Positions 18,763-29,485 are shown, numbered from the stretch's first letter. The stretch is DNA of 29,485 bases from Microcystaceae cyanobacterium (GCA_041746575.1 JBGTGT010000003.1:1-29485), one strand, 5' to 3'. Numbers and translations are program-made. The notes: generated by a model from the letters alone, not told the origin.

Positions 18763-19629
18763 TTACAATACAGTTGACTTAAAGTATTGTGCATAAAGCC
18801 GTTTCACCTTTTCTCGATAAAGTTTTCGGACATTTTCAGGAGCGATAATTATACAATCCTCCCAGTAAGGAGAAATTTCTCGAAAAAACCAAAAGGTACT
18901 ATAAATAGGACGAATAACTCGCCGAATCGGGGGATCACCTTCTAATTCCCCGATAAATCGATCTTGATTAGTCGAGTTGTAAGCAAAAGCCAGTCCTTCC
19001 AAAAGATGAAACTCGACGGCGACTCGTTGTAAATCGATTTCCCATTGACGATCAATGGACGTTACCGCCGCTTCTTGAATACGATCTAAGCGGAGACAGC
19101 GATTGTGCCTCAATTCGGGAATATCTTGGCTTCCCTCGGTTTCTTCACAGCGACACATTAAGTATTGGCGTTTTTCGATCAGTTGGATTTGAGCATGAAG
19201 TACCGTAAAGTGAAAAAGTCGTCCTCCCGCATCCTGATAAGTCAACTTAAAGGGTTGACGTTCTTTGATGTACTGCTCCATCTGTTGTCGCCACCCTGTT
19301 TGAAGGATATCCAAGAAGCTTTCAATCTTCCGACGAAAGGGAGCTTGGAGTTCACTGCGCTGTACCAGTATTCCGGCAATTTCTTTTGCATTGTCGATTT
19401 TTCCAAGGTCTATTAAGGCTTGTCTGGCTTGTTCGAGAGCTTGGATTCTTTCTTGTGTCCAATCGTGGTTTGACGCAATCAGCAGTTCTTGTCGAGCGAT
19501 CGCTTTCAACAAACGTGAGATATTGGGCTTTTCCCCCCATTTCATTCCTTTTTCGTGAGCTAAGGCTTCTAATTGCAGTTTTTCTTGTTCAGAAATAGAG
19601 AGAGTGATCGATTGTCCTTTGCGTCCCAT
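18763..19629 (-). CDS. WYL-domain transcriptional regulator (type I-D associated, Sll7009-like)
   Basis: N-terminal ribbon-helix-helix-like SITLSISEQEK...PNISRLL, central WYL-like LTYQDA...RQYL...LRLDRI, and C-terminal FWFFREI..Y..DC.II.PE.VR. Divergent from the cas operon. Confidence 0.85.
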   Translation of the reverse strand: MGRKGQSITLSISEQEKLQLEALAHEKGMKWGEKPNISRLLKAIARQELLIASNHDWTQERIQALEQARQALIDLGKIDNAKEIAGILVQRSELQAPFRRKIESFLDILQTGWRQQMEQYIKERQPFKLTYQDAGGRLFHFTVLHAQIQLIEKRQYLMCRCEETEGSQDIPELRHNRCLRLDRIQEAAVTSIDRQWEIDLQRVAVEFHLLEGLAFAYNSTNQDRFIGELEGDPPIRRVIRPIYSTFWFFREISPYWEDCIIIAPENVRKLYREKVKRLYAQYFKSTVL

Positions 19630-19865
19630 AGTGTACGTCCACTTTGTCCGTAAAAATATTGCATATCTTCATTATCAAGGTTAAAAATAGAGATAGCAAT
19701 AGTTTAAGTACATTAAATACGGAGGTAGAAAATAGAGTATAAATAATACTCAAATATTTTTGATAACGAGGGTAATCTTTGAGTCGTTTTGGGGAAGTCT
19801 TGTATTGAAGGAGGATTAAAGAAAAGATGTTCTCAATGCAATTGCTCAATCAGGCGCATTTACGC

Positions 19866-19890
19866 AAAAAGCTAGAGTTTAACCCTAGCT
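19866..19890 (-). terminator. Intrinsic terminator of the CRISPR-like RNA
   Basis: Minus strand reads AGCTAGGG-TTAAA-CTCTAGCT then TTTT, directly after the second repeat. Confidence 0.75.
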
Positions 19891-19981
19891 TACAATCCCT
19901 CATAGGGATTAATCATGGAAAAAGGGGATTTTTAGCCTTAATCGCTGTATTCTTTCAATTCCTCAGAGGATTTATTCAGCT
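19866..19981 (-). ncRNA. Putative Cas-regulating CRISPR-like RNA (crlRNA/CreR-type), about 115-nt precursor
   Basis: Promoter, two repeat-like units, a spacer and a terminator lie in order on one strand. Predicted Cas6-matured form is 19959-19897 (63 nt). Confidence 0.75.
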
Positions 19982-19987
19982 TCCTCA
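19889..19987 (-). CRISPR. CRISPR-like mini-array: pseudo-repeat (19987-19952), 27-nt spacer (19951-19925), repeat (19924-19889)
   Basis: Minus strand: TGAGGAAGCTGAATAAATCCTCTGAGGAATTGAAAG / AATACAGCGATTAAGGCTAAAAATCCC / CTTTTTCCATGATTAATCCCTATGAGGGATTGTAAG. The repeats share 21 of their 27 3' positions and carry 3'-proximal hairpins with ATTG(A/T)AAG ends, like cyanobacterial I-D repeats. Confidence 0.85.
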
Positions 19988-20016
19988 TTATATCAAAGGT
20001 TTTGTATTGTGTTCAA
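19987..20016 (-). promoter_or_regulatory. Sigma70-type promoter for the mini-array
   Basis: TTGAAC (20016-20011), 18-nt spacer ending TGA, then TATAAT (19992-19987), an extended -10. Predicted TSS about 19980-19981. Confidence 0.75.
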
Positions 20017-20037
20017 TAAATGAGTAAAGATAGACTT

Positions 20038-20055
20038 CTTAATCGCTGTATTAAC
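20038..20055 (-). promoter_or_regulatory. Partial protospacer with GTT PAM targeted by the mini-array spacer
   Basis: Minus strand GTT (20055-20053) is followed by AATACAGCGATTAAG (20052-20038), identical to spacer nt 1-15 (19951-19937). Confidence 0.85.
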
Positions 20056-20063
20056 CTACTTTG

Positions 20064-20072
20064 TGCTAATCT
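20064..20072 (+). promoter_or_regulatory. Putative extended -10 of the cas operon promoter
   Basis: TG-C-TAATCT. The implied -35 position (about 20044-20049) lies inside the protospacer. Confidence 0.55.
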
Positions 20073-20153
20073 AAAAAATAAGTGAACTAAGACACGGTAA
20101 GCCTTATCCACCTATTCCTTTATCATACTTATTTTTCTAGGGTAGGGCATGAC

Positions 20154-20405
20154 TTGTCTGGTTCGCAAGTATCCAATGAATTAAGTAAGAAGTTTTTTCC
20201 AATGTCACTACCAGAACGTATGCTTCGTTTGATGTCCGATGGTGCATGGTATTCCAGTGATGAATTGGTGGAAAAAATTAGTCATCGCTTTTCTGCTACA
20301 AAGCACATTCTTGAAAAACGAGGGTTTAAGTTTGAAAAACGCCGTCTTCAAGGACAACAACACGAATACAGATTAGTGATTGACTCAAAAGCGATCGCTA
20401 AATAA
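20154..20405 (+). CDS. Small winged-HTH-like protein, first ORF of the cas operon
   Basis: ERMLRLMSDGAWYSSDELVEKISHRFSATKHILEKRGFKFE...EYRL has a wHTH-like pattern. Start is TTG 20154 or ATG 20202. Confidence 0.7.
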   Translation: MSGSQVSNELSKKFFPMSLPERMLRLMSDGAWYSSDELVEKISHRFSATKHILEKRGFKFEKRRLQGQQHEYRLVIDSKAIAK

Positions 20406-20469
20406 CCACTAATCTACAGAGAGGGTTTTTATTCCCTCTCAATTACCTAAATCATTTTATAGGATTATT

Positions 20470-23202
20470 ATGTCTAGAAGTCTATTGAATCGTCAGCCTC
20501 AATCTCTTGAGGAGCAATATTTTAGTGAGATTCGACCTAAATTATATGAGCTTCATGGACAACATCTTCAATATGGTTCTCGCAAAGGACGCACATTAGC
20601 CGAACATTTAGACTCTGCTTGTCAGTTTGTGTTAACTGTTAGCAAAATTGCCAAACTTCCAGAAGAAAAACGAGGTTGTATTCTAGCGGCGACAGCCGTT
20701 CATGACTTAAATAAGTTAACGGATAAGGAGGATAAACGTAATGTGAAAGCCTTAGCAAGGGATCTAACTTTCCTTCAAGAACAGTTGCAACTCGCAGGGG
20801 TTAGAAAATTAGTCAAGACTGATGAAGATTTAGAATTAGTTCGTCGGTTGATTGAACGACATTCAGGACATAATGCCAGTGATGGAATGCGCTTTTTACC
20901 TGAAGATCCTAATATAAAACGTTGGGCGGCAATGCTCATCGGTGCTGATTTATTTGATCTTGGCATTGATAAAGATAAACGGATTTGTAAAGTTGAAACT
21001 GAGCTAACTGTTGCATTAGGTCGAAATATTCAGTTATTTGAAATTACTTTGTCAGAAGATAGAGGGTATTTAACGTCCTTGTTACTGAGTGCTTGTGAGG
21101 AAGTTTTATATCGTTATAATTTGTACACTCTTGCAATTAATCCCAATGGTCAAATCTTTGTGGGAGAGAAATTTCCTGAAGAAGATGTAACGATTAAGAT
21201 AGCTAACGTTTGGCAGAAAAAAATTGACAGTGTTTTTGGTAGTAATGTTGAACAATTAGTTAAAGCAACTAAGGATGGAATTAAAGTCAATAATGAAGCT
21301 ATTCAGCAAAATTTAGAGGGAGCGATTGATGCAGTTGATCAGCTTTTAGTCAAAAAATTCAAGAGTTATACAAAGGAGAAATTAACTCAAGATATTAACA
21401 AATATGGTAATGATGCAGGTGCAGAAGCGGTTAAACAAGCTGAATCATTGGGGTTATTCCCTGTAGATAGTGCTGACGAATTTGTTTTATCTGAAGGAAT
21501 GAAAGCAATTTATTTAAGCTATCGAGAAGCTGAACTAAGCCCGTCTGAGGCGTGGGATAGAATAGCAGAAGATATGGGACTTTCACCTGAACAAAGAGCC
21601 GCTTTAGAGCCTTTTAATCCTCAGTATGGACGGTGTTTATTTGCGGCACAAGTTGCTAAAATTAAAGGATTAGAGGAAATATATAACGCTCTAAGAAATT
21701 CCTTTGAATTTCGAAAAACTGAAGATATAGATGTATCAGCAGAACTCATTAATGCAGTTCAATATTTGCTCAATTTTCCCACAGCAATAAACTGGCAAGG
21801 ATCTTCAGAACTTACTGCTTATATTGAAGCAAATCCTCGTCAACGTTGTTCTTTAGGAACGACTTCCCTGCAAGTCAGTGAATTAATTTCTAACCAAATG
21901 CCACCCGGAACAAAAGTTCAATCCTTTTCTAATCGCCTTCCGGGAGGGATGAGCGCAGAACCAAAAAGACGAGGAGACAACTTAGCTTCCTTAAGCTACC
22001 AATTATTAGCAGTAGGTGCAAACTTTTCCAAAGCGAGCAAACAAGATCCCTTGTATCTTCATTTTGCTTTACCTAATGGTTCGAGCCCAGAATTAAAAAT
22101 AATTTGGCAAAAGTGGTTACAAGAAAAAGCAGATACTAATGCAGATGGAGGAACAGTAACTGTTGATGAATTAGAACTTTATCGAGATAACCACTTAGCT
22201 TTTAAAGCCAATAAAGTGGTCGGTGCTGCTTTACCAAAGCGTCCCGACTTTACTCAATCTACTGTCATTATTCCCCTTGTATGGGGTGAGGTTAATAGTT
22301 CAATAGCTTTACTAAAATCTTTACGCCTTGCACTTGAATTATCACTTGCACCTGATTTCGGTTTTCCTTTCATCTTAGGAGGTAATTTAGAGATAAAACC
22401 TCAGTGGGATATTTTTGGACAAGTTGAAGGAATTCCTTCATCTTTACAACCCCTATTAGGGAATGGTCAATATTATCGCCAAGGACATCTTTCTGAGAAA
22501 CAACAACAGAAAGTTTTAACGGCTGAAGCGATTTTAGACCGATTACGTTGCGTTGGCAAATTAGCGATTTCTGTTGCTAGTTTGAGGAAAAAAGATGATT
22601 GTCTTTACGATTTAGTTAAAGCCACTCAACGACCTCTCGATTTATATTATGTCCTTTTAAGATGGATTCTTCGAGAACAAAATGATCCTAATTTAGAAGC
22701 CATTTGGAATCGAATTAAAGAACCTTTACACCAATTATTAAGGAGTCTTATGTCAGAAGAACATGATTTAGTTTCACAGTATCTTAAAGATGCTGCTTTG
22801 ATTGCTGAAACAGCAAAATTGCGAGGAAGTTCTTTCCGTCGTACCGCTCAAACTGAACCTTTTTCAGAGTTTATTAAAGCGGTACGTTCTCGTAAATCTC
22901 ATTTAGATTGGGACACTGTTTTTGCTTCATTAGTTCAACAATATCACACTCGATTAGATCGAATTCGTGAACATGGAGTTGGAGCAACTAAATTTGAACA
23001 AATCAAGCAATTTTATCAAGTCCTGCGCCAACTGTTTGATGAGGTTTACCATAATCGTCCTGAGCGTTTACTGTCAGACCAAAAAACGTTAGAAGCTGCC
23101 TATTTGTTCTTTTTACAAGAAGCTCGTCAAGACCTTAAAGCACAAGCTGATAGTAACAAAGACCAATCTGAAAATTTATCTGAAAACAACGAGGAAAATT
23201 AA
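20470..23202 (+). CDS. cas10d: Type I-D large subunit Cas10d/Csc3 with N-terminal HD nuclease
   Basis: 910 aa with TLAEHL...VHDLNKL...RHSGH...GADLFD HD motifs and an AGGA RBS; precedes the cas7/cas5 genes. Confidence 0.88.
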   Translation: MSRSLLNRQPQSLEEQYFSEIRPKLYELHGQHLQYGSRKGRTLAEHLDSACQFVLTVSKIAKLPEEKRGCILAATAVHDLNKLTDKEDKRNVKALARDLTFLQEQLQLAGVRKLVKTDEDLELVRRLIERHSGHNASDGMRFLPEDPNIKRWAAMLIGADLFDLGIDKDKRICKVETELTVALGRNIQLFEITLSEDRGYLTSLLLSACEEVLYRYNLYTLAINPNGQIFVGEKFPEEDVTIKIANVWQKKIDSVFGSNVEQLVKATKDGIKVNNEAIQQNLEGAIDAVDQLLVKKFKSYTKEKLTQDINKYGNDAGAEAVKQAESLGLFPVDSADEFVLSEGMKAIYLSYREAELSPSEAWDRIAEDMGLSPEQRAALEPFNPQYGRCLFAAQVAKIKGLEEIYNALRNSFEFRKTEDIDVSAELINAVQYLLNFPTAINWQGSSELTAYIEANPRQRCSLGTTSLQVSELISNQMPPGTKVQSFSNRLPGGMSAEPKRRGDNLASLSYQLLAVGANFSKASKQDPLYLHFALPNGSSPELKIIWQKWLQEKADTNADGGTVTVDELELYRDNHLAFKANKVVGAALPKRPDFTQSTVIIPLVWGEVNSSIALLKSLRLALELSLAPDFGFPFILGGNLEIKPQWDIFGQVEGIPSSLQPLLGNGQYYRQGHLSEKQQQKVLTAEAILDRLRCVGKLAISVASLRKKDDCLYDLVKATQRPLDLYYVLLRWILREQNDPNLEAIWNRIKEPLHQLLRSLMSEEHDLVSQYLKDAALIAETAKLRGSSFRRTAQTEPFSEFIKAVRSRKSHLDWDTVFASLVQQYHTRLDRIREHGVGATKFEQIKQFYQVLRQLFDEVYHNRPERLLSDQKTLEAAYLFFLQEARQDLKAQADSNKDQSENLSENNEEN
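22750..23202 (+). CDS. cas11d: Cas11d small subunit from an internal in-frame start within cas10d (150 aa)
   Basis: AGGAG (22741-22745), 4 nt, then in-frame ATG 22750 (Met761, MSEEHDL...) ahead of a helical C-terminal domain. Confidence 0.75.
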   Translation: MSEEHDLVSQYLKDAALIAETAKLRGSSFRRTAQTEPFSEFIKAVRSRKSHLDWDTVFASLVQQYHTRLDRIREHGVGATKFEQIKQFYQVLRQLFDEVYHNRPERLLSDQKTLEAAYLFFLQEARQDLKAQADSNKDQSENLSENNEEN

Positions 23203-23205
23203 ACC

Positions 23206-24246
23206 ATGTCCATCGAAAAATTAGCCCCCTTTCTTGCTCCTAAATACGAAAACTTTCCTAAAGGTCGTACCATTGGGTTAGTGATTTTAAGAACCACTCA
23301 ATCAGAAACTATTTTTCGCACGGAAGGGACAGGCGAACCGATGTGTAGTGAGTCCGTTCAAGCAGGATTTGAAGACACAAATATTATGCCTCGCTTAGTG
23401 ATGACAAAACGCAAACAAATTGCTCCAGAAAGACGACGAGGACGGGAATTTTTACGGTCAAATGAGTTGCTCTATATCGCTAAAAACGACAAAGTGTGTT
23501 CTCTTAATACCAACGCTCCCTGTGAAATGTGTATTGATTGTTTTCTCTATGGTTTTGCCGCAGGAGGAGAAGGCGCACAGAAAAGCCGAGTATGGACAGA
23601 GGATGCTTTTAGTATTTTACCTTCTACGGAACTGATAGGCGATCGCACAATCAATGCAACTTATGAAAATGGCACAATGCGCGATGAAGAAGGAAAAGCT
23701 TCAACTGCACTTAATACCAGTGAATATATTAAGCCGGGGGTTCATTTTTTGGATATTGTTACCCTCAAAGACGTGACGGCTGATGAGTTACGTTATGCAA
23801 TCGGTAATATTTTATTAACCACTCGTTACGGTGCAGTTTCTAGTCGTGTCGGACGGATGGATAATCAAATTTTAGGGGTATTTGGGGGAATGGCTGAACT
23901 GCCCAGTTCTCTCGAATTAGTTCAAGGGATTTATGATAAGTTGCAAGCAGATAAGATTGAACTTGATCATCCCTTAAAAACCGATCCTTTGATCACTGCA
24001 ACTCAAGAAATTATTGTGACTTGGACAAATAAAAGAGGTGTTTCTTTGCAACTGTCTGACAGCGAATTAAAAGAATTACTCGCTGACATTGATCAAAATT
24101 GGTCAATAGAACAACAAGAAACTTTCTTAAAACGCCTCGATAATTCTTACGCAGAATATCGTAAGAAACCAGAAAACCCATCTGCTAAAAAAGGAAAGGG
24201 TAAAGCTTCTAAACAACAGCTAGAAAAAGCTGAGGAAGAAGAATAA
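23206..24246 (+). CDS. cas7d: Type I-D backbone subunit Cas7d/Csc2
   Basis: LRTTQSETIFRTEG, KRKQIAPERR.GRE, CEMCIDCFLYGFA, KSRV..EDAF, YGAVSSR.G. Confidence 0.9.
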   Translation: MSIEKLAPFLAPKYENFPKGRTIGLVILRTTQSETIFRTEGTGEPMCSESVQAGFEDTNIMPRLVMTKRKQIAPERRRGREFLRSNELLYIAKNDKVCSLNTNAPCEMCIDCFLYGFAAGGEGAQKSRVWTEDAFSILPSTELIGDRTINATYENGTMRDEEGKASTALNTSEYIKPGVHFLDIVTLKDVTADELRYAIGNILLTTRYGAVSSRVGRMDNQILGVFGGMAELPSSLELVQGIYDKLQADKIELDHPLKTDPLITATQEIIVTWTNKRGVSLQLSDSELKELLADIDQNWSIEQQETFLKRLDNSYAEYRKKPENPSAKKGKGKASKQQLEKAEEEE

Positions 24247-24249
24247 ATC

Positions 24250-25032
24250 ATGAAACAACTACAGTTACAGCTTGACACACCAAAACCTACTTTCACAACA
24301 GCGAGATTAGTTGAATTGTGGTGTGCTGAACCGATCTTTTTTGCCTCACGGGAACTGTCAGACACTTATTATACAGAAGGAACAATCGGAAATTATGCTC
24401 TTGCTTATGCGTTATCTTGGGCAAAATCTCCCTATCGTTTAACAGGAAAAGATACCTATAGACCTCGATATGTTGAGGATTTAACACCTCTTAATGGGGA
24501 TTGTTATATCCTTCCTGCATGGCCAATTAACGAACAAATTTCCTTTCGTTTTGAACGGTTTAATGGACTTTCTGATGCCTATTGGTATGCGATGACAAAT
24601 AATAGAGTAGCAACCGCGCGGGAAGATTTATCGATTGTTCGTAGTGGCAAAAAACCGAGTACCTTTCGACCCAGTAATTTTCCACAAACGGGACGACTAA
24701 GAGTAATTGAAAGAAACAACCGATTTCAAACATTAGTATTGGGAGAACGTGAACTTCCTGAATATATCCGTGTGGGTAAATTTATGAGTAAAGTTCGCCT
24801 TGATATTAAACAGACATTTAAGATTAGACAGCTTCCTGTTGCTCAGTATTCATGTAATACTTATTTGAGTGTAGCAGATATTCCGTCTAATCTTGAATTA
24901 ATCGCCTTTGATGTTATTTCAATTCCTCCTGTCTCTTTGTTAAAAAATCTTAGCTTTCAGGGTAAAGCGTGGCAAATTGGGGATTTTATTGTTCCCGCTA
25001 ATCTTCAGTTTTGTGGAGGAAATAATAACTGA
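24250..25032 (+). CDS. cas5d: Type I-D Cas5d/Csc1
   Basis: FFASREL...T...IGNYALAYAL, N.PQ.GR and LPEYIRVGKFMSK; follows csc2. Confidence 0.88.
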   Translation: MKQLQLQLDTPKPTFTTARLVELWCAEPIFFASRELSDTYYTEGTIGNYALAYALSWAKSPYRLTGKDTYRPRYVEDLTPLNGDCYILPAWPINEQISFRFERFNGLSDAYWYAMTNNRVATAREDLSIVRSGKKPSTFRPSNFPQTGRLRVIERNNRFQTLVLGERELPEYIRVGKFMSKVRLDIKQTFKIRQLPVAQYSCNTYLSVADIPSNLELIAFDVISIPPVSLLKNLSFQGKAWQIGDFIVPANLQFCGGNNN

Positions 25033-25057
25033 TGATTTAGAAAACTTGAGTTAGGTT

Positions 25058-25080
25058 GGGCGAGTGGTATTCGCCCCTAC
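25058..25080. repeat. REP-like hairpin (GTAG-type) between cas5d and cas3
   Basis: GGGCGAGT-GGT-ATTCGCCC followed by CTAC, which reads GTAGGGGCGAAT... on the minus strand. Confidence 0.5.
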
Positions 25081-25128
25081 ATTTTTCTCATTGTAGCCGT
25101 TATATTTACATTATTTAGGTCAATTCAT

Positions 25129-27417
25129 ATGAATAGCAAACTTGAAATTACCATCGAACCTGCTAGTATTGCTACTTGTTTAGATATTCCTACTGAATTA
25201 GAATTCATGGGAAAAACATTACAGCATCAAGTAGATGTTTATGAAGCAGCAAAGGATCATGATATTATTCTTGATCTTGCACCCACAGGAACAGGAAAAA
25301 CGGATGCAGGATTAAGTATTTTGAAGCATAATCCTGATAGGAATGCTATCTATATTGCTCCTACTAATGCACTGATTGAACAGCAAACCCAAGCCGCAGA
25401 AGAATTTGTCGAAAAAGCAAGTTTACCTCACATTGTTAAAGCGGCATCAGCAAGACATATCAAAGATTGGCCAAATGAGAAAGTCGGAAAACGTCGAGGC
25501 AAAAAACTTTATAATGTATTGCGTGAACCTGCTACTATTTTTCCTGAGTGTCAGAGCCAACCGCTCTTATTAGTGACTAATCCAGATATTTTCTATTACG
25601 CAACCTTCTTCTATAATAGACTAGATAAAAGCAACATTGCTAGTGAATTTTACAGTAGTTTTTCAACAGTAATTTTTGATGAATTTCATCTTTATGTTGC
25701 CAAACAACTTGTTAGCTTATTTTTCTATATGGCAATGTCTAAAGTTTTCGGTTATTTTAGTCATAATCGAAAAATTGTCTTATTAACAGCAACCCCCGAT
25801 CCAGCGTGTAATGCTGCTTTAGAAACTTTACAGCGATCAGGGGTTAAAATTAAAAAGATTGATGGACAAGAAAATCAAACTCATTTAACTCCCTCACAGA
25901 CACAGGTTAATCTCACGATTTGTAAACAACCAGACACGAAAGATCAATTCGTTCAAGAAATTGTTCAGGAAGTGACTCGAAGATTAAAAGAAAACCCTGA
26001 GCAAAATGGTGCAGTCATTCTTGATTCAAAAGATACAATAGGAAGAATCTATGATCAACTTTATAAAAAAGGATTTAAAAGTCAAATAGGTCGTATTATT
26101 GGTAATACTCCTCTTAAAGATCGTAAAAAAGCCGTTCAAAAACAAGTCATTTTAGCGACTCAAACGGTTGATATAGGATTTAACTTTAAAAAGATTCCAG
26201 AACCTGCTCGACAAAATTTAGATTGGTTAATCTTTTCCACTCGTGATCGTTTCTCTTTTTGGCAAAGAATCGGACGAGTAGGGAGAGTTTTAGGTAAACA
26301 AGAAACGGATATTATTTCAGAGGCGATCGCTTATCTTCCAGAAAAGGCATGGGAACAAGGGATTAAAGAATTGGACATTAATGGGGGACGAGAATCATTA
26401 AGAACAATGTTAGATAGTTTAGATTGTATGAAACGTCCATTTTTAGAAGTCTATTGGAGGTCAGAAGCTTTTTTAGAAATTGCTAGACCGTTACTTGAAC
26501 TTGAGAATGTTTTAGCTGGATTATCGAATGAAAATTTAATTATTCAACTTTATCAAACCCTACAAAAAATATTGGGTGGAAGCAAAGATTGGAATTATTA
26601 TCGTCAACGAATGAAGGTTATTCAAGGAGCAAATAATATTTGTAATTATTCTATCGAAAAATTACAGAAAGACTGGAAATATATTAAAGGTGGTCAAAAC
26701 TGTGTAATGAGCTTTCTAAGATCGAATTATCTAGAAGATTATGAAACAATACAAGCAGATCAAGCATCTATGAAAACGATAGAAAAGTTCATTCAAGAAG
26801 ATCCTAGTATTGCTAATGAACTACTAGAATATGCTCAAATTTTGCAAGCGAGTTATACTCCTTTATTTCGTTTTCGAGATAGTTTATTTGAAAATGTGAA
26901 AGTTCATGATCCTAATTTTCTTCTTTTAGACGAAGCAGGAGAGACAAATCTTGATCCGATTCATTTACTGCGATATTTAGAATTTGAAACCAATGGAGAT
27001 ATTATTGAATTAATTGAACGTGCTGAAATTCCTTATAATCTAATATTTTCTTTACAAGTTGAAGATTTAGAAACTTTCAATAATACTTATTTAGCAAAAC
27101 TCTATGCGTTTAAAAATTTACATATTAAACGAATGCAGGGAGGGAGTACCCGTCCTACTGATTTTCCTTCATCCTTACAAAAAGCTATTCAAGAAACCCT
27201 AATTTCGGGCGTTATTGTTAAAGAAAATAATAAAAATCGATGGGCAATTGCTAAACTAAGAAAACAAGGTTTAGACTGTTATTCGCTAGAAGTTTCAGAT
27301 TACTCAAACTTAAAACCTCAAGAGTATCTATTCTTTCCCAGTTTATCAGGAATTTTAGCGATCGCACAAGCAGGTTTTGCTTTAAAATGTCCAGATAACG
27401 AGCCTTTTATTTGCTAA
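25129..27417 (+). CDS. cas3: Type I-D CRISPR helicase Cas3' (no HD domain)
   Basis: HQ motif, APTGTGKT (Walker A), PTNAL, DEFH, TAT, ATQTVDIG.NF, QRIGRVGR. Confidence 0.9.
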   Translation: MNSKLEITIEPASIATCLDIPTELEFMGKTLQHQVDVYEAAKDHDIILDLAPTGTGKTDAGLSILKHNPDRNAIYIAPTNALIEQQTQAAEEFVEKASLPHIVKAASARHIKDWPNEKVGKRRGKKLYNVLREPATIFPECQSQPLLLVTNPDIFYYATFFYNRLDKSNIASEFYSSFSTVIFDEFHLYVAKQLVSLFFYMAMSKVFGYFSHNRKIVLLTATPDPACNAALETLQRSGVKIKKIDGQENQTHLTPSQTQVNLTICKQPDTKDQFVQEIVQEVTRRLKENPEQNGAVILDSKDTIGRIYDQLYKKGFKSQIGRIIGNTPLKDRKKAVQKQVILATQTVDIGFNFKKIPEPARQNLDWLIFSTRDRFSFWQRIGRVGRVLGKQETDIISEAIAYLPEKAWEQGIKELDINGGRESLRTMLDSLDCMKRPFLEVYWRSEAFLEIARPLLELENVLAGLSNENLIIQLYQTLQKILGGSKDWNYYRQRMKVIQGANNICNYSIEKLQKDWKYIKGGQNCVMSFLRSNYLEDYETIQADQASMKTIEKFIQEDPSIANELLEYAQILQASYTPLFRFRDSLFENVKVHDPNFLLLDEAGETNLDPIHLLRYLEFETNGDIIELIERAEIPYNLIFSLQVEDLETFNNTYLAKLYAFKNLHIKRMQGGSTRPTDFPSSLQKAIQETLISGVIVKENNKNRWAIAKLRKQGLDCYSLEVSDYSNLKPQEYLFFPSLSGILAIAQAGFALKCPDNEPFIC

Positions 27418-27444
27418 ATAATTGTTACTTAAACCTAAAATCTC

Positions 27445-27705
27445 ATGACTATTCAAGAATTAATCGAAGCCCTCTCCCCATCTGACCCCAATACTCCCGT
27501 TGTTATAAGTGGTTATAAAGGAGGTTACAACGATGTTAGTATCATCGAAAAGAAAACCATGCAACTGAATGTTAATAACAAATATTATTATGGTGTACAT
27601 AATTGTATAAAAGGATTAATTGTTTCCGATAAGCCGATAGCTGAAGTAATTTATTTAAGGGGTTTTAATTCCATTTATGATGAACCTGAGTTATCTTATC
27701 ATTAA
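27445..27705 (+). CDS. Small hypothetical protein within the cas operon
   Basis: 86-aa ORF MTIQELIEAL...PVVISGYKGGYND, co-oriented and tightly spaced with neighbours. Confidence 0.6.
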   Translation: MTIQELIEALSPSDPNTPVVISGYKGGYNDVSIIEKKTMQLNVNNKYYYGVHNCIKGLIVSDKPIAEVIYLRGFNSIYDEPELSYH

Positions 27706-27764
27706 GTTGCAAATAATCTTGATAGTTGTCTAATTTTTATCATTGTCAATGGAATCTCAACATT

Positions 27765-28325
27765 ATGTCAAACCAAACTCAAACCAAACTCACCCTAGAC
27801 GAATTCCTCTCATCTCCCTTGGCTAATGAAAACTATGAATATTTTGACGGAGAATTAATTCAAAAGATGTCGCCTAAATTTTCTCATTCCCGTGTCACAG
27901 GTCAATTATTTATCCTTCTTGAAGATTGGAATCAAGGAAAAGGAGAAATTGGCATTGAATGGTGTGTTCGCTTAAAACGTAATGGAAAAGATTGGTGTCC
28001 CATTCCAGATTTACTCTATATCTCTTTCGAGAAACTAGGTGATATTGAATTAGAAGATGATGCTTGTCCAATTCCTCTAGAATTAGTCATAGAAATTATT
28101 TCCCCTGATCAATATTTTAGTGATCTCAGCGAAAAAGCAGAATCTTATTTAAAAGCAGGGGTTAATCGAGTTTGGCTAATTGATACTCAAGTTAAGAAAA
28201 TCACTATCTTTTATCCCGATTCTCCGCCACAAACTAAGCAAGGTGAAGATGCTTTAGCTGATGATTTATTACCTGAACTAAATTTAACCCCTCAACAAAT
28301 TTTTCAGAAAGCAAGATTAATTTAG
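27765..28325 (+). CDS. Uma2 (DUF820) family endonuclease-like protein
   Basis: LTLDEFL...EYFDG..IQKMSP..H, PDLLY, LVIEIISP, K...YL.AGV.RVWLID. ATG 27765. Confidence 0.88.
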   Translation: MSNQTQTKLTLDEFLSSPLANENYEYFDGELIQKMSPKFSHSRVTGQLFILLEDWNQGKGEIGIEWCVRLKRNGKDWCPIPDLLYISFEKLGDIELEDDACPIPLELVIEIISPDQYFSDLSEKAESYLKAGVNRVWLIDTQVKKITIFYPDSPPQTKQGEDALADDLLPELNLTPQQIFQKARLI

Positions 28326-28363
28326 GTATCAATTGAACTCTTAACTATCAACTATTCACTAAA

Positions 28364-29176
28364 ATGCCTTATAGTCTTGTTATTAATTTAACTCCCATTT
28401 CTCCCCTGTCACCGAACTATCTCAGTGGAAGACACCTTCATGCCTTATTCCTGACTCTCGTTAGCTCAGTCGATCCGGAATTAGGCAATTATCTACATAA
28501 ATCTCAAGTAGATAAAGCTTTTGTCCTTTCTCCTTTTCAAATTAGTGGAAAATCTCACAAAATTGTCTGGAGTCATACTAAACCTATCCCCTATGGTATT
28601 CCCTGTTGGTTTCGCATTTCTCTTTTAGATGACACGCTTTTCGGCAAATTAACTCAATTATGGCTTAATCTCAACCCTAAGCATCCTTGGCATCTTGGTT
28701 CTGCTGATTTACACATTACTAGCATCTTAGGCACACCCCAATTAACTCAACCTTGGGCGAATAGTTGTTCTTATCAACAATTATATGAACAATCGAGTGA
28801 AACGGAGCGTAGTTTTCATTTTACCTTAACAACTCCCACTGCCTTTCGAAATGGTCAGTATGACACCGCCTTACCCACTCCTGATGTTGTTTTTAATAGT
28901 CTCTTAAGACGATGGAATAAATACAGTAAAATTCCTTTTGATTCTTTTTCCATCACTGCTATCTTTCCCAGTTTTTTTGATATTCATACTGAAATCGTCA
29001 CTGACTCTCGTAGTAAGTTTATTGGTTGCGTTGGGAATATTCAATATCGTTTATTAGGAGAAGTTGAACCCTCGCAAATTAAACAGATTAACACCTTAGC
29101 AAATTACGCCCTTTATTGTGGCATTGGACGTAAAACAACAATGGGGATGGGAATGGTTATGAGAGTTAATCGTTAA
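28364..29176 (+). CDS. cas6: CRISPR endoribonuclease Cas6
   Basis: GRHLHALFL, TPTAFR and the C-terminal G-loop YCGIGRKTTMGMG. Confidence 0.95.
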   Translation: MPYSLVINLTPISPLSPNYLSGRHLHALFLTLVSSVDPELGNYLHKSQVDKAFVLSPFQISGKSHKIVWSHTKPIPYGIPCWFRISLLDDTLFGKLTQLWLNLNPKHPWHLGSADLHITSILGTPQLTQPWANSCSYQQLYEQSSETERSFHFTLTTPTAFRNGQYDTALPTPDVVFNSLLRRWNKYSKIPFDSFSITAIFPSFFDIHTEIVTDSRSKFIGCVGNIQYRLLGEVEPSQIKQINTLANYALYCGIGRKTTMGMGMVMRVNR

Positions 29177-29345: not shown

Positions 29346-29485
29346 GTGACATCCTCCAGACACCGACCCTAACGGGTACGGTGCTGGCTTCCCTTCCTTG
29401 CGGTTGGTTTTTCCTGCTTCATCGGGGTTCCCAAGCAACCTTCCTCCACAGGCAGTATCACCGACTGTCCATCGGCTACAAAGGT
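29346..29485 (-). mobile_element. Right end of an IS200/IS605-family tnpB element (reRNA/omegaRNA scaffold region)
   Basis: Subterminal hairpin CCAG-CACCG-T-ACCC-GTTA-GGGT-CGGTG-T-CTGG (29387-29356), followed by AGGATGTCAC ending in a TCAC motif. Confidence 0.72.
29369..29485 (-). CDS. tnpB: TnpB C-terminal tail (5'-partial)
   Basis: Open frame TFVADGQSVILPVEEGCLGTPMKQEKPTARKGSQHRTR* with the G..V..PVE...PMKQE tail typical of cyanobacterial TnpB. RuvC motifs would lie outside the window. Confidence 0.68.
   Translation of the reverse strand, partial: TFVADGQSVILPVEEGCLGTPMKQEKPTARKGSQHRTR

Follow-up and report, generated by a model that had tools for sequence, protein, structure and literature searches.

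Organization of the Locus

The DNA analyzed here (the window) is a stretch of 29,485 bp that makes up an entire contig (C3) of a cyanobacterial genome (G000; 134 contigs, 4.2 Mb, G+C 40%), whose assembly is 99.78% complete as judged by marker genes. Between a gene for a WYL-domain regulator and a type I-D cas operon (cas genes being those associated with CRISPR, the short palindromic repeats that occur clustered and regularly interspaced), the minus strand carries a small unit that we interpret as a putative mini-array, whose RNA would guide the adjacent Cas effector to a regulatory site nearby. Read from 20016 to 19866, this strand shows a sigma-70-like promoter and then two repeats separated by a 26-nt spacer, the first decayed at its 5′ side and the second well preserved; a hairpin with a U5 tract closes the unit. 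An earlier reading of the same DNA (the original prediction) had placed a promoter, a repeat, a spacer, a repeat, and a terminator in this order between the WYL gene and the I-D operon, and all these parts are indeed found there on the minus strand.

The −35 element of the promoter is TTGAAC (20016–20011) and its −10 element is TATAAT, with a TG extension (19992–19987). The spacing of 18 nt agrees with the TTGAAC-N18-TATAAT arrangement originally described, and a consensus scan scored 10 of 12 positions. Because the count of promoter-like sites between 19500 and 20600 was not above that of shuffled sequences (4 vs 3.4 ± 1.8), the mini-array promoter alone is not significant. Transcription would start near 19980. 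In the window, in Cyanothece L032, and in Microcystis L077, a distance of 35–37 nt separates the −10 element (TATAAT or TAAAAT) from the end of repeat 1 on its 3′ side.

Repeat 1 is degenerate; in a 37-nt frame it occupies 19988–19952 and ends in the tail ATTGAAAG (19959–19952). It can form a hairpin, UCCU-CUG-AGGA, at 19970–19960, directly followed by the 8-nt handle AUUGAAAG at 19959–19952. Cas6d is reported to cut after the stem-loop of the repeat, leaving an 8-nt 5′ handle (PMC10212523), and the corresponding cut in repeat 1 would fall between 19960 and 19959. The spacer-like guide (19951–19926) is 26 nt long if the repeat measures 37 nt, rather than the 27 nt first proposed. Repeat 2 (19925–19889) contains the hairpin CCCU-AUG-AGGG at 19907–19897, after which (that is, after 19897) a second Cas6d cut is expected; its last 8 nt are ATTGTAAG. 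Aligned at their 3′ ends, the two repeats are identical at 21/37 positions (counted by eye). The units lie 63 nt apart, end to end, and 450 nt upstream of cas10d.

As for the intrinsic terminator of the original prediction, RNAfold does return a terminator-like hairpin (19890–19871) followed by U5 (19870–19866), while the terminator scan made no call for this hairpin–U5 segment (19890–19866). The fold of the whole transcript was not better than that of shuffled sequences (z = −0.68).

We searched for copies of the repeat and spacer in the genome by blastn-short, and for arrays in relatives by family-wide BLAST. Genomes with true arrays sharing the repeat core emerged from the latter, namely, G036, which is of the same genus (its repeat, in the transcribed sense, is GTTTAAACTACTATTAATCCCTATGAGGGATTGAAAC), G084, and G058. 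Repeat 2 matches the array repeats of G036 and G084 at 27/37 positions each, including 22 and 21, respectively, of the 24 positions at the 3′ end. Repeat 1 matches them at 18/24 positions at the 3′ end and at just 3–4/13 at the 5′ end. In repeat 2, the 8 nt that follow the cut site drift, with 6/8 matching here and ATAGCTTG found in Microcystis. The pattern of decay, with repeat 1 keeping only its hairpin and handle and repeat 2 keeping its hairpin, fits a unit from which a single guide would be produced.

The expectation that standard array finders would miss such a unit was borne out. TRF found no array in the window, and Rfam gave nothing at gathering level over its entire length; its CRISPR-DR matches stayed below threshold, at 22.4 bits (gathering score 40; repeat 2 to CRISPR-DR5), 24.9 bits (gathering score 36), and 18.9 bits (gathering score 36). 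A canonical CRISPR array was rejected as an explanation, given that there are only two units, that TRF and Rfam came back empty, and that the contig contains no cas1, cas2, or cas4.

The Guide Matches a Flanking Site Upstream

Bases 1–15 of the spacer (AATACAGCGATTAAG, 19951–19937) recur exactly at 20052–20038, on the same strand and 101 nt upstream. The stretch of identity starts with the first base of the spacer rather than within the repeat, and the upstream copy is preceded by GTT (20055–20053). Reported protospacer-adjacent motifs (PAMs) of I-D systems are GTN in Synechocystis and GTH in Microcystis (PMC10212523). The region between the mini-array and the HTH–cas10d operon (HTH standing for a small helix-turn-helix protein) thus offers partial, PAM-proximal complementarity to the guide, amounting to 15/15 from guide base 1. 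A PAM of the right subtype flanks the target not only here but also in all 11 related units examined, as GTT or GTC. This self-target was not part of the original prediction.

The upstream copy is the best non-self match of the spacer in the 4.2-Mb genome (blastn-short). When GTN-flanked sites were scored by their run of PAM-proximal matches, omitting positions 1, 6, 12, 18, and 24, the self-target ranked first among 392,368 sites in the genome, its 12 read positions exceeding the 10 of the runner-up. We also shuffled the spacer 500 times and looked for matches within 1.2 kb on either side; no shuffled spacer (0/500) equaled the self-target of the window.

Related Units in Other Cyanobacteria

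The original prediction had suggested looking for the same unit in homologous loci. One with the same order of parts is present in Cyanothece sp. BG0011 (L032, i.e., contig C147 of genome G014). Others occur in Microcystis isolates L070 and L071 (the unit also found in G044 and G045), in four Microcystis-like metagenome contigs (L077, L085, L086, and L088), and in a Dactylococcopsis metagenome-assembled genome (MAG; L038); a Halothece MAG (L037) has a decayed form. Across an alignment of seven units, the −10 element, the CCU...AGGAAUUGAAA segment of repeat 1, the 5′ part of the guide, and the UCCCUA..AGGGAU segment of repeat 2 are invariant, while drift affects the 8 nt past the second cut site as well as the sequence of the terminator. 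At the terminator position, Cyanothece L032 has a different hairpin, followed by T7, which the terminator scan does call. Among the hairpin pairs, 3/4 in repeat 1 and 5/7 in repeat 2 are invariant across the orthologous units.

The spacing between guide and target is also maintained. In the homologous units the best GTN-flanked match to the unit's own guide lies on the same strand, 92–104 nt upstream; when all 12 tested units are taken together, it is always on the same strand and 92–123 nt upstream. In eight of the 12 (the window, L032, L077, L085, L086, L088, L038, and the unrelated unit L099 described below) none of 500 shuffles reached the observed match.

The few differences between guides and targets are not scattered evenly. 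In the window, the target (GTT followed by AATACAGCGATTAAG) shows no mismatch to the guide. The guide of Cyanothece L032, AATACAGCGATAAAG, faces GTC AATACTGCGATACAG, with mismatches at 6 and 13; that of Dactylococcopsis L038, AATACCGCGATCAAG, faces GTT AATACTGCGATTAAG, and that of Microcystis L077, L086, and L088, AATATCGCAATCAAG, faces GTT AATATAGCAATAAAG, both with mismatches at 6 and 12. Hence, over positions 1–15 in the four lineages, 5/6 mismatches fall on position 6 or 12 (binomial probability 2.2e-4, the lineages being not fully independent). These positions are among those (1, 6, 12, and 18) at which the Microcystis I-D system is reported to tolerate mismatches, three mismatches abolishing editing (PMC8216271). 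Furthermore, positions 5 and 9 of the Microcystis unit differ from those of the window (C to T and G to A, respectively) in the guide and in the target alike.

The unit is patchily distributed. Our search found 46 related loci anchored on the WYL gene, 45 of which had upstream sequence, and in these we inspected 450–700 nt. Complete mini-arrays were present in six (L032, L070, L071, L074, L037, and L038) and remnants consisting of repeat 2 only in two (L041 and L069), with no unit in the remaining 37/45. For the L074 mini-array we found no convincing GTN-flanked target within 1.2 kb.

At the closest I-D locus (L027, corresponding to G084:C32:15600–15720), and also in L041, repeat 2 and a terminator-like hairpin are kept; the G084 array lies on the same contig. 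The G084 remnant lacks repeat 1, the 5′ half of the guide, the target, and the HTH gene, and the start of cas10d is about 60 nt away from it. In Halothece (L037:3400–3560), the guide is TGAATAACGATTAAGG and a GTC-flanked site upstream, TGAATACGATTAGG, equals the guide except that two A or T runs are each one base shorter; this site may be a decayed target.

The Adjacent Type I-D Operon and Its Neighbors

The type I-D cas region extends from 20470 to 29176 on the plus strand (NCBIfam, Pfam, and PADLOC). It comprises cas10d (20470–23202; PADLOC Cas10_Id, 1514 bits), cas7d/csc2 (23206–24246), cas5d/csc1 (24250–25032), cas3′ (25129–27417), and cas6d (28364–29176; 472 bits). By the same three resources, the genes for Cas6d, Cas10d, Cas7d, Cas5d, and Cas3′ beside the mini-array are all intact. 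The interior of the operon, between cas3′ and cas6d, also holds an 86-aa open reading frame (ORF) without family match and a gene for a Uma2-family endonuclease (together at 27445–28325, plus strand).

The first gene past the target, on the plus strand at 20175–20405, encodes the small HTH protein (PADLOC HTH model PDLC01152, E = 5.9e-13); judging from relatives, its start codon may instead be the ATG at 20212. HTH homologs divergent from WYL genes are found in L038 and L072. Neither Cas10d nor the HTH protein gave a usable sequence match to solved structures, and both were identified by PADLOC. Between the HTH stop codon and the cas10d start (region 20415–20445) lies a 7-bp hairpin, GAGAGGG-N8-CCCTCTC (20418–20440), without a U-tract, which could be a processing or attenuation site.

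On the other side, 3′ of the mini-array and on the same strand, the WYL-domain regulator gene occupies 18763–19629 (PADLOC WYL, E = 1.1e-10). Its match to Pfam WYL is weak (E = 8.9e-4; 19.6 bits vs a cut-off of 21.8). Directly before the WYL start codon there is a palindrome resembling GTGTACGTACA (19630–19720 in the window, minus strand; also seen by eye, uncounted, in many loci of the L031–L076 set), and a second GTCCGTA/GTACTTA-like copy occurs 60–90 nt upstream of it. As judged from their sequence and position, these palindromes are probably operators for WYL autoregulation.

The left 18 kb of the contig contain housekeeping genes (among them trpS, serS, and arginine decarboxylase) and no transposition genes. 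None of the 27 window ORFs scanned belonged to a transposition family, and no Tn7-like genes were detected beside the I-D effector. We could thus discard the idea that the guide serves a type I-D CRISPR-associated transposon, against which speak the absence of transposition families among these ORFs, the housekeeping flanks, and the presence of Cas3′.

Other Mini-Array Families

An order-wide search with the pattern CCTNNNAGGAATTGAAA gave matches in 91/401 genomes; a reversed-pattern control matched fewer genomes, with one match each. We examined 30 of the matching loci, most of which turned out to be coding sequence, chance matches, or array ends, and only L099 and L100 were clear mini-arrays. 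L099, from another family of the order, is an unrelated I-D mini-array whose guide AAGATTGCCATCTGAT and target GTC AAGATAGCCATATGAT agree over 16 nt except at positions 6 and 12.

The L099 mini-array (L099:1400–1520), like that of L100 (each on the reverse strand of its locus), is located between cas3′ and a divergent trio of small genes that, from their translations, look like toxin–antitoxin cargo. The target in L099 is duplicated in tandem, both copies being flanked by GTC and lying 23 nt from each other; it is the first copy that departs from the guide at 6 and 12 only.

A second family of mini-arrays occurs in metagenome contigs L078–L084 and L087 (e.g., L078:1254–1345). Here repeat 1 ends in TAGGAATTGAAAC, the guide is 28 nt long and starts with TATGAACTATA, and the hairpin of repeat 2 is CCCTATTAGGG; directly 3′ there are a CCCC...GGGG hairpin, a ribosome-binding site, and a small ORF. 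In the four loci of this type that we tested (L078, L079, L081, and L087), no GTN-flanked target was detected within 1.2 kb.

Position of the Target and Proposed Circuit

An alignment of four lineages suggested where the promoter of the HTH and cas genes may lie. In all of them (4/4), a TAnnCT hexamer is found 10–13 nt past the PAM complement: TAATCT in the window, TATACT in Dactylococcopsis, and TATGCT in Cyanothece and Microcystis. In Cyanothece, moreover, the PAM complement falls within a perfect TTGACA. If the TAATCT hexamer at 20067–20072 (plus strand) is taken as the candidate −10 element, the protospacer and PAM would cover about −42 to −25, i.e., the −35 region of the divergent HTH–cas10d promoter. 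The end of the target is also 22 nt from the −35 element of the mini-array, and therefore an effect on the mini-array's own promoter is possible.

Taking these observations together, we consider it likely, from sequence features and by analogy with tested systems, that the unit is a regulatory mini-array of the CreR or CRISPR RNA-like RNA (crlRNA) type, serving the adjacent type I-D system. Its transcript, about 115 nt long, would run from near 19980 to the hairpin–U5. Cas6d would cut it after each repeat hairpin, releasing a 63-nt RNA (19959–19897) made of the handle AUUGAAAG, the 26-nt guide, and a 3′ hairpin, and this RNA would be loaded into I-D Cascade. The complex would then recognize GTT at 20055–20053, with guide bases 1–15 pairing to the plus strand at 20038–20052; the match and the PAM are seen directly in the DNA. 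Binding would presumably take place without cutting, as in analogous systems, because I-D interference requires a match much longer than 15 bp. Bound Cascade would cover the −35 region of the promoter, placed as above, of HTH and cas10d–cas7d–cas5d–cas3′–cas6d, and would repress synthesis of the effector. The predicted outcome is a negative feedback loop, relieved, by analogy with CreR, when canonical CRISPR RNAs (crRNAs) or anti-CRISPR proteins titrate Cascade. The guide of roughly 63 nt for I-D Cascade put forward in the original prediction thus gains support from the conservation of the unit and of its pairing, from the tolerated mismatch positions, and from the intact cas genes.

Weighing the Alternatives

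A number of observations speak against a functional autoregulatory unit. The stem of repeat 1 has only four pairs, and the 26-nt guide is short compared with the spacers of about 34–37 nt in the arrays of relatives. The original prediction took a compensatory difference between the two hairpins as evidence of selection. The pair in question, next to the cut site, is real (U-A in repeat 1, C-G in repeat 2 and in the array repeats of relatives), but it amounts to a single event, and covariation of the hairpins across orthologs is not significant, its score being reached by 72/500 shuffles (seven aligned units, five of them distinct); hence it is weak evidence. On the cas side, the consensus scan of 19500–20600 yields no promoter on the plus strand, and an alternative −10 element, TATCAT (20121–20126), would place the target at about −80 to −95. 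In four units, shuffled spacers did reach the observed match, with frequencies of 130/500 (L070), 145/500 (L071), 17/500 (L100), and 349/500 (L037); the high rates in the Microcystis isolates L070 and L071 are due to a mismatch at read position 8, and the site in Halothece L037 has two one-base indels. Only repeat 2 is retained in L069 and in G084, whose Cas10d is 81% identical. The unit of Cyanothece G014 looks intact, at the start of a contig, while Cas10d and Csc2 were not found in that 99%-complete assembly, so the unit may persist without an effector. Finally, the 99.78%-complete assembly holds no other copy of the mini-array repeat, and therefore no cognate array for comparison; nor does it contain Cas4, and Cas1 occurs only beside a type III-B locus. 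The alignment to the genome's own I-D array that the original prediction called for could thus be made only with relatives: the repeats resemble the G036 and G084 arrays, while the cognate array was not found in the assembly.

Several of these points (no cognate array or I-D adaptation genes in the assembly, decay in G084, L069, and L037, and a unit lacking detectable I-D effector genes in G014) are what one would expect of a non-functional, decaying remnant of CRISPR repeats, such as a lost array end, with the 15-nt identity left over from a local duplication. Repeat-like relics are indeed described as common in cas loci (PMC10120712). Against such a relic, the −10 element, hairpin and handle, seed, second hairpin, and target spacing are kept across at least four genera, and the GTN PAM in every unit. 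Nor would a neutral duplicate be expected to change mostly at positions 6 and 12 and, at 5 and 9, in both copies at once, and we judge this explanation unlikely. Another reading of the 15-nt copies is that they are operators for the WYL or HTH protein and that the repeat-like hairpins are incidental. Two regulators do flank the region. Direct operator repeats about 100 nt apart are a common arrangement, which the repeat observed here would fit. Nevertheless, copies of the 15-mer (up to three mismatches) are found upstream of WYL in only 4/45 loci, two of which are mini-array loci (mean of the shuffled control, 1.2). One copy always comes directly after the repeat handle and the other always after GTN, and the free positions recur every 6 nt, a periodicity that one expects of Cascade rather than of a protein operator. 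We regard a pair of protein operators as very improbable.

A crlRNA could also be functional and have a main role other than cas autorepression: it might control a cargo gene, the HTH regulator, or serve as antitoxin in a CreTA-like module whose toxin has escaped recognition. Indeed, the gene directly after the target encodes the HTH protein rather than a Cas protein, and the hairpin at 20418–20440 separates its stop codon from cas10d. Targets of I-D mini-arrays upstream of regulators or toxin–antitoxin genes that precede cas10d have been reported (Shmakov et al., PMC10120712), and toxin–antitoxin-like genes stand beside the mini-arrays of L099 and L038. In the window, though, there is no toxin-like gene from the target to cas10d. 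The protein-family searches (NCBIfam, Pfam, and PADLOC) found no toxin families, although a small RNA toxin could escape them. The HTH gene is present in a locus devoid of mini-array (L072), which indicates that it belongs to the locus and is not cargo, and Microcystis G044 has only about 25 HTH codons between the target and cas3′. A main role of this kind thus has, in our view, a small chance of being correct.

The lack of a cognate array deserves separate consideration. The assembly has a single Cas1–Cas2 pair, beside the type III-B (Cmr) locus, and its only array (C46:6192–8075, 26 copies) has a different repeat; the sole Cas6 found is the Cas6d of the I-D locus. The contig stops 310 nt past cas6d, within a 140-nt multi-copy element (29346–29485), and the I-D array may simply be unassembled or unbinned. 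Both contig ends (118–257 and 29346–29485) carry 140-nt stretches that are repeated at the ends of other contigs and probably derive from multi-copy elements. Alternatively, the I-D effector might have no array of its own and depend on the mini-array as its sole guide, being kept as a repressor of the HTH regulon guided purely by RNA or silenced by its last guide. We find this scenario unlikely; if the array were truly absent, the mini-array RNA would be the only evident guide of the I-D effector.

Comparison with Known Systems

Autorepression by CreR has been shown experimentally for types I-B, I-E, and V-A (Liu et al. 2023, 10.1101/2023.03.10.532045), and self-repression of cas genes by degenerate mini-CRISPRs has also been reported for I-F1. 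For I-D, the cases given by Liu et al. come from a manual search (their Figure S7) in which none is presented as tested. Shmakov et al. (2023) count mini-arrays in 15% of 128 I-D loci (Table 1, PMC10120712), with targets in the cas10d promoter or upstream of regulators or toxin–antitoxin genes before cas10d; two supplement files of that paper hold no cyanobacterial names. We found no experiment on an I-D mini-array, nor a paper on a Microcystis mini-array, in the literature searched. The original prediction had left open whether I-D instances had been described, and both 2023 papers in fact predict them. The RNA class is thus already known and, because I-D mini-arrays are already predicted, our locus is a well-supported instance and not a new class.

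While the known picture of this class is unchanged, the pairing kept across genera, with variation at the positions that Cascade does not read, provides evidence at the sequence level of selection on such a circuit in cyanobacteria. It would add an RNA layer to the regulation of I-D loci by WYL and HTH proteins. The locus and its relatives also constitute a clean natural test and supply ready constructs for a first I-D experiment, the Microcystis I-D Cascade being already functional in heterologous cells.

The unit resembles CreR of types I-B, I-E, and V-A in being a degenerate two-repeat element by the cas genes, with partial complementarity to the (putative) cas promoter region and a canonical PAM, and the outcome predicted by analogy, binding without cleavage and autorepression of the effector, is the same. 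It differs from the tested CreR RNAs in its subtype and in its position outside the cas operon, between the WYL and HTH genes. The closest counterparts are the I-D mini-arrays of Shmakov et al. (PMC10120712), with which it shares a partial, seed-anchored, PAM-flanked target upstream of cas10d, regulator, or toxin–antitoxin genes, as well as a patchy distribution among relatives, some of which have lost the unit. In the mini-arrays described there, however, the repeat adjacent to the seed is the better kept, whereas in our unit the 5′ half is gone from repeat 1, and repeat 2 is the better preserved of the two. Like the RNA proposed here, CreA of the I-B CreTA module comes from a degenerate mini-CRISPR, and its limited complementarity to a promoter directs Cascade there (10.1101/2023.03.10.532045). 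CreA, though, represses the toxin RNA gene creT, and no toxin is evident past the target in our case. In comparison with canonical I-D crRNAs (PMC10212523), the predicted RNA would have the same 8-nt handle ending in GAAA plus one base, the hairpin before the cut, the GTN PAM, and the unread base at every sixth position. What would set it apart is that it carries a single guide, of 26 nt rather than about 35 nt, under its own putative promoter and terminator, and that its complementarity is to 15 nt of the chromosome instead of a full match to foreign DNA.

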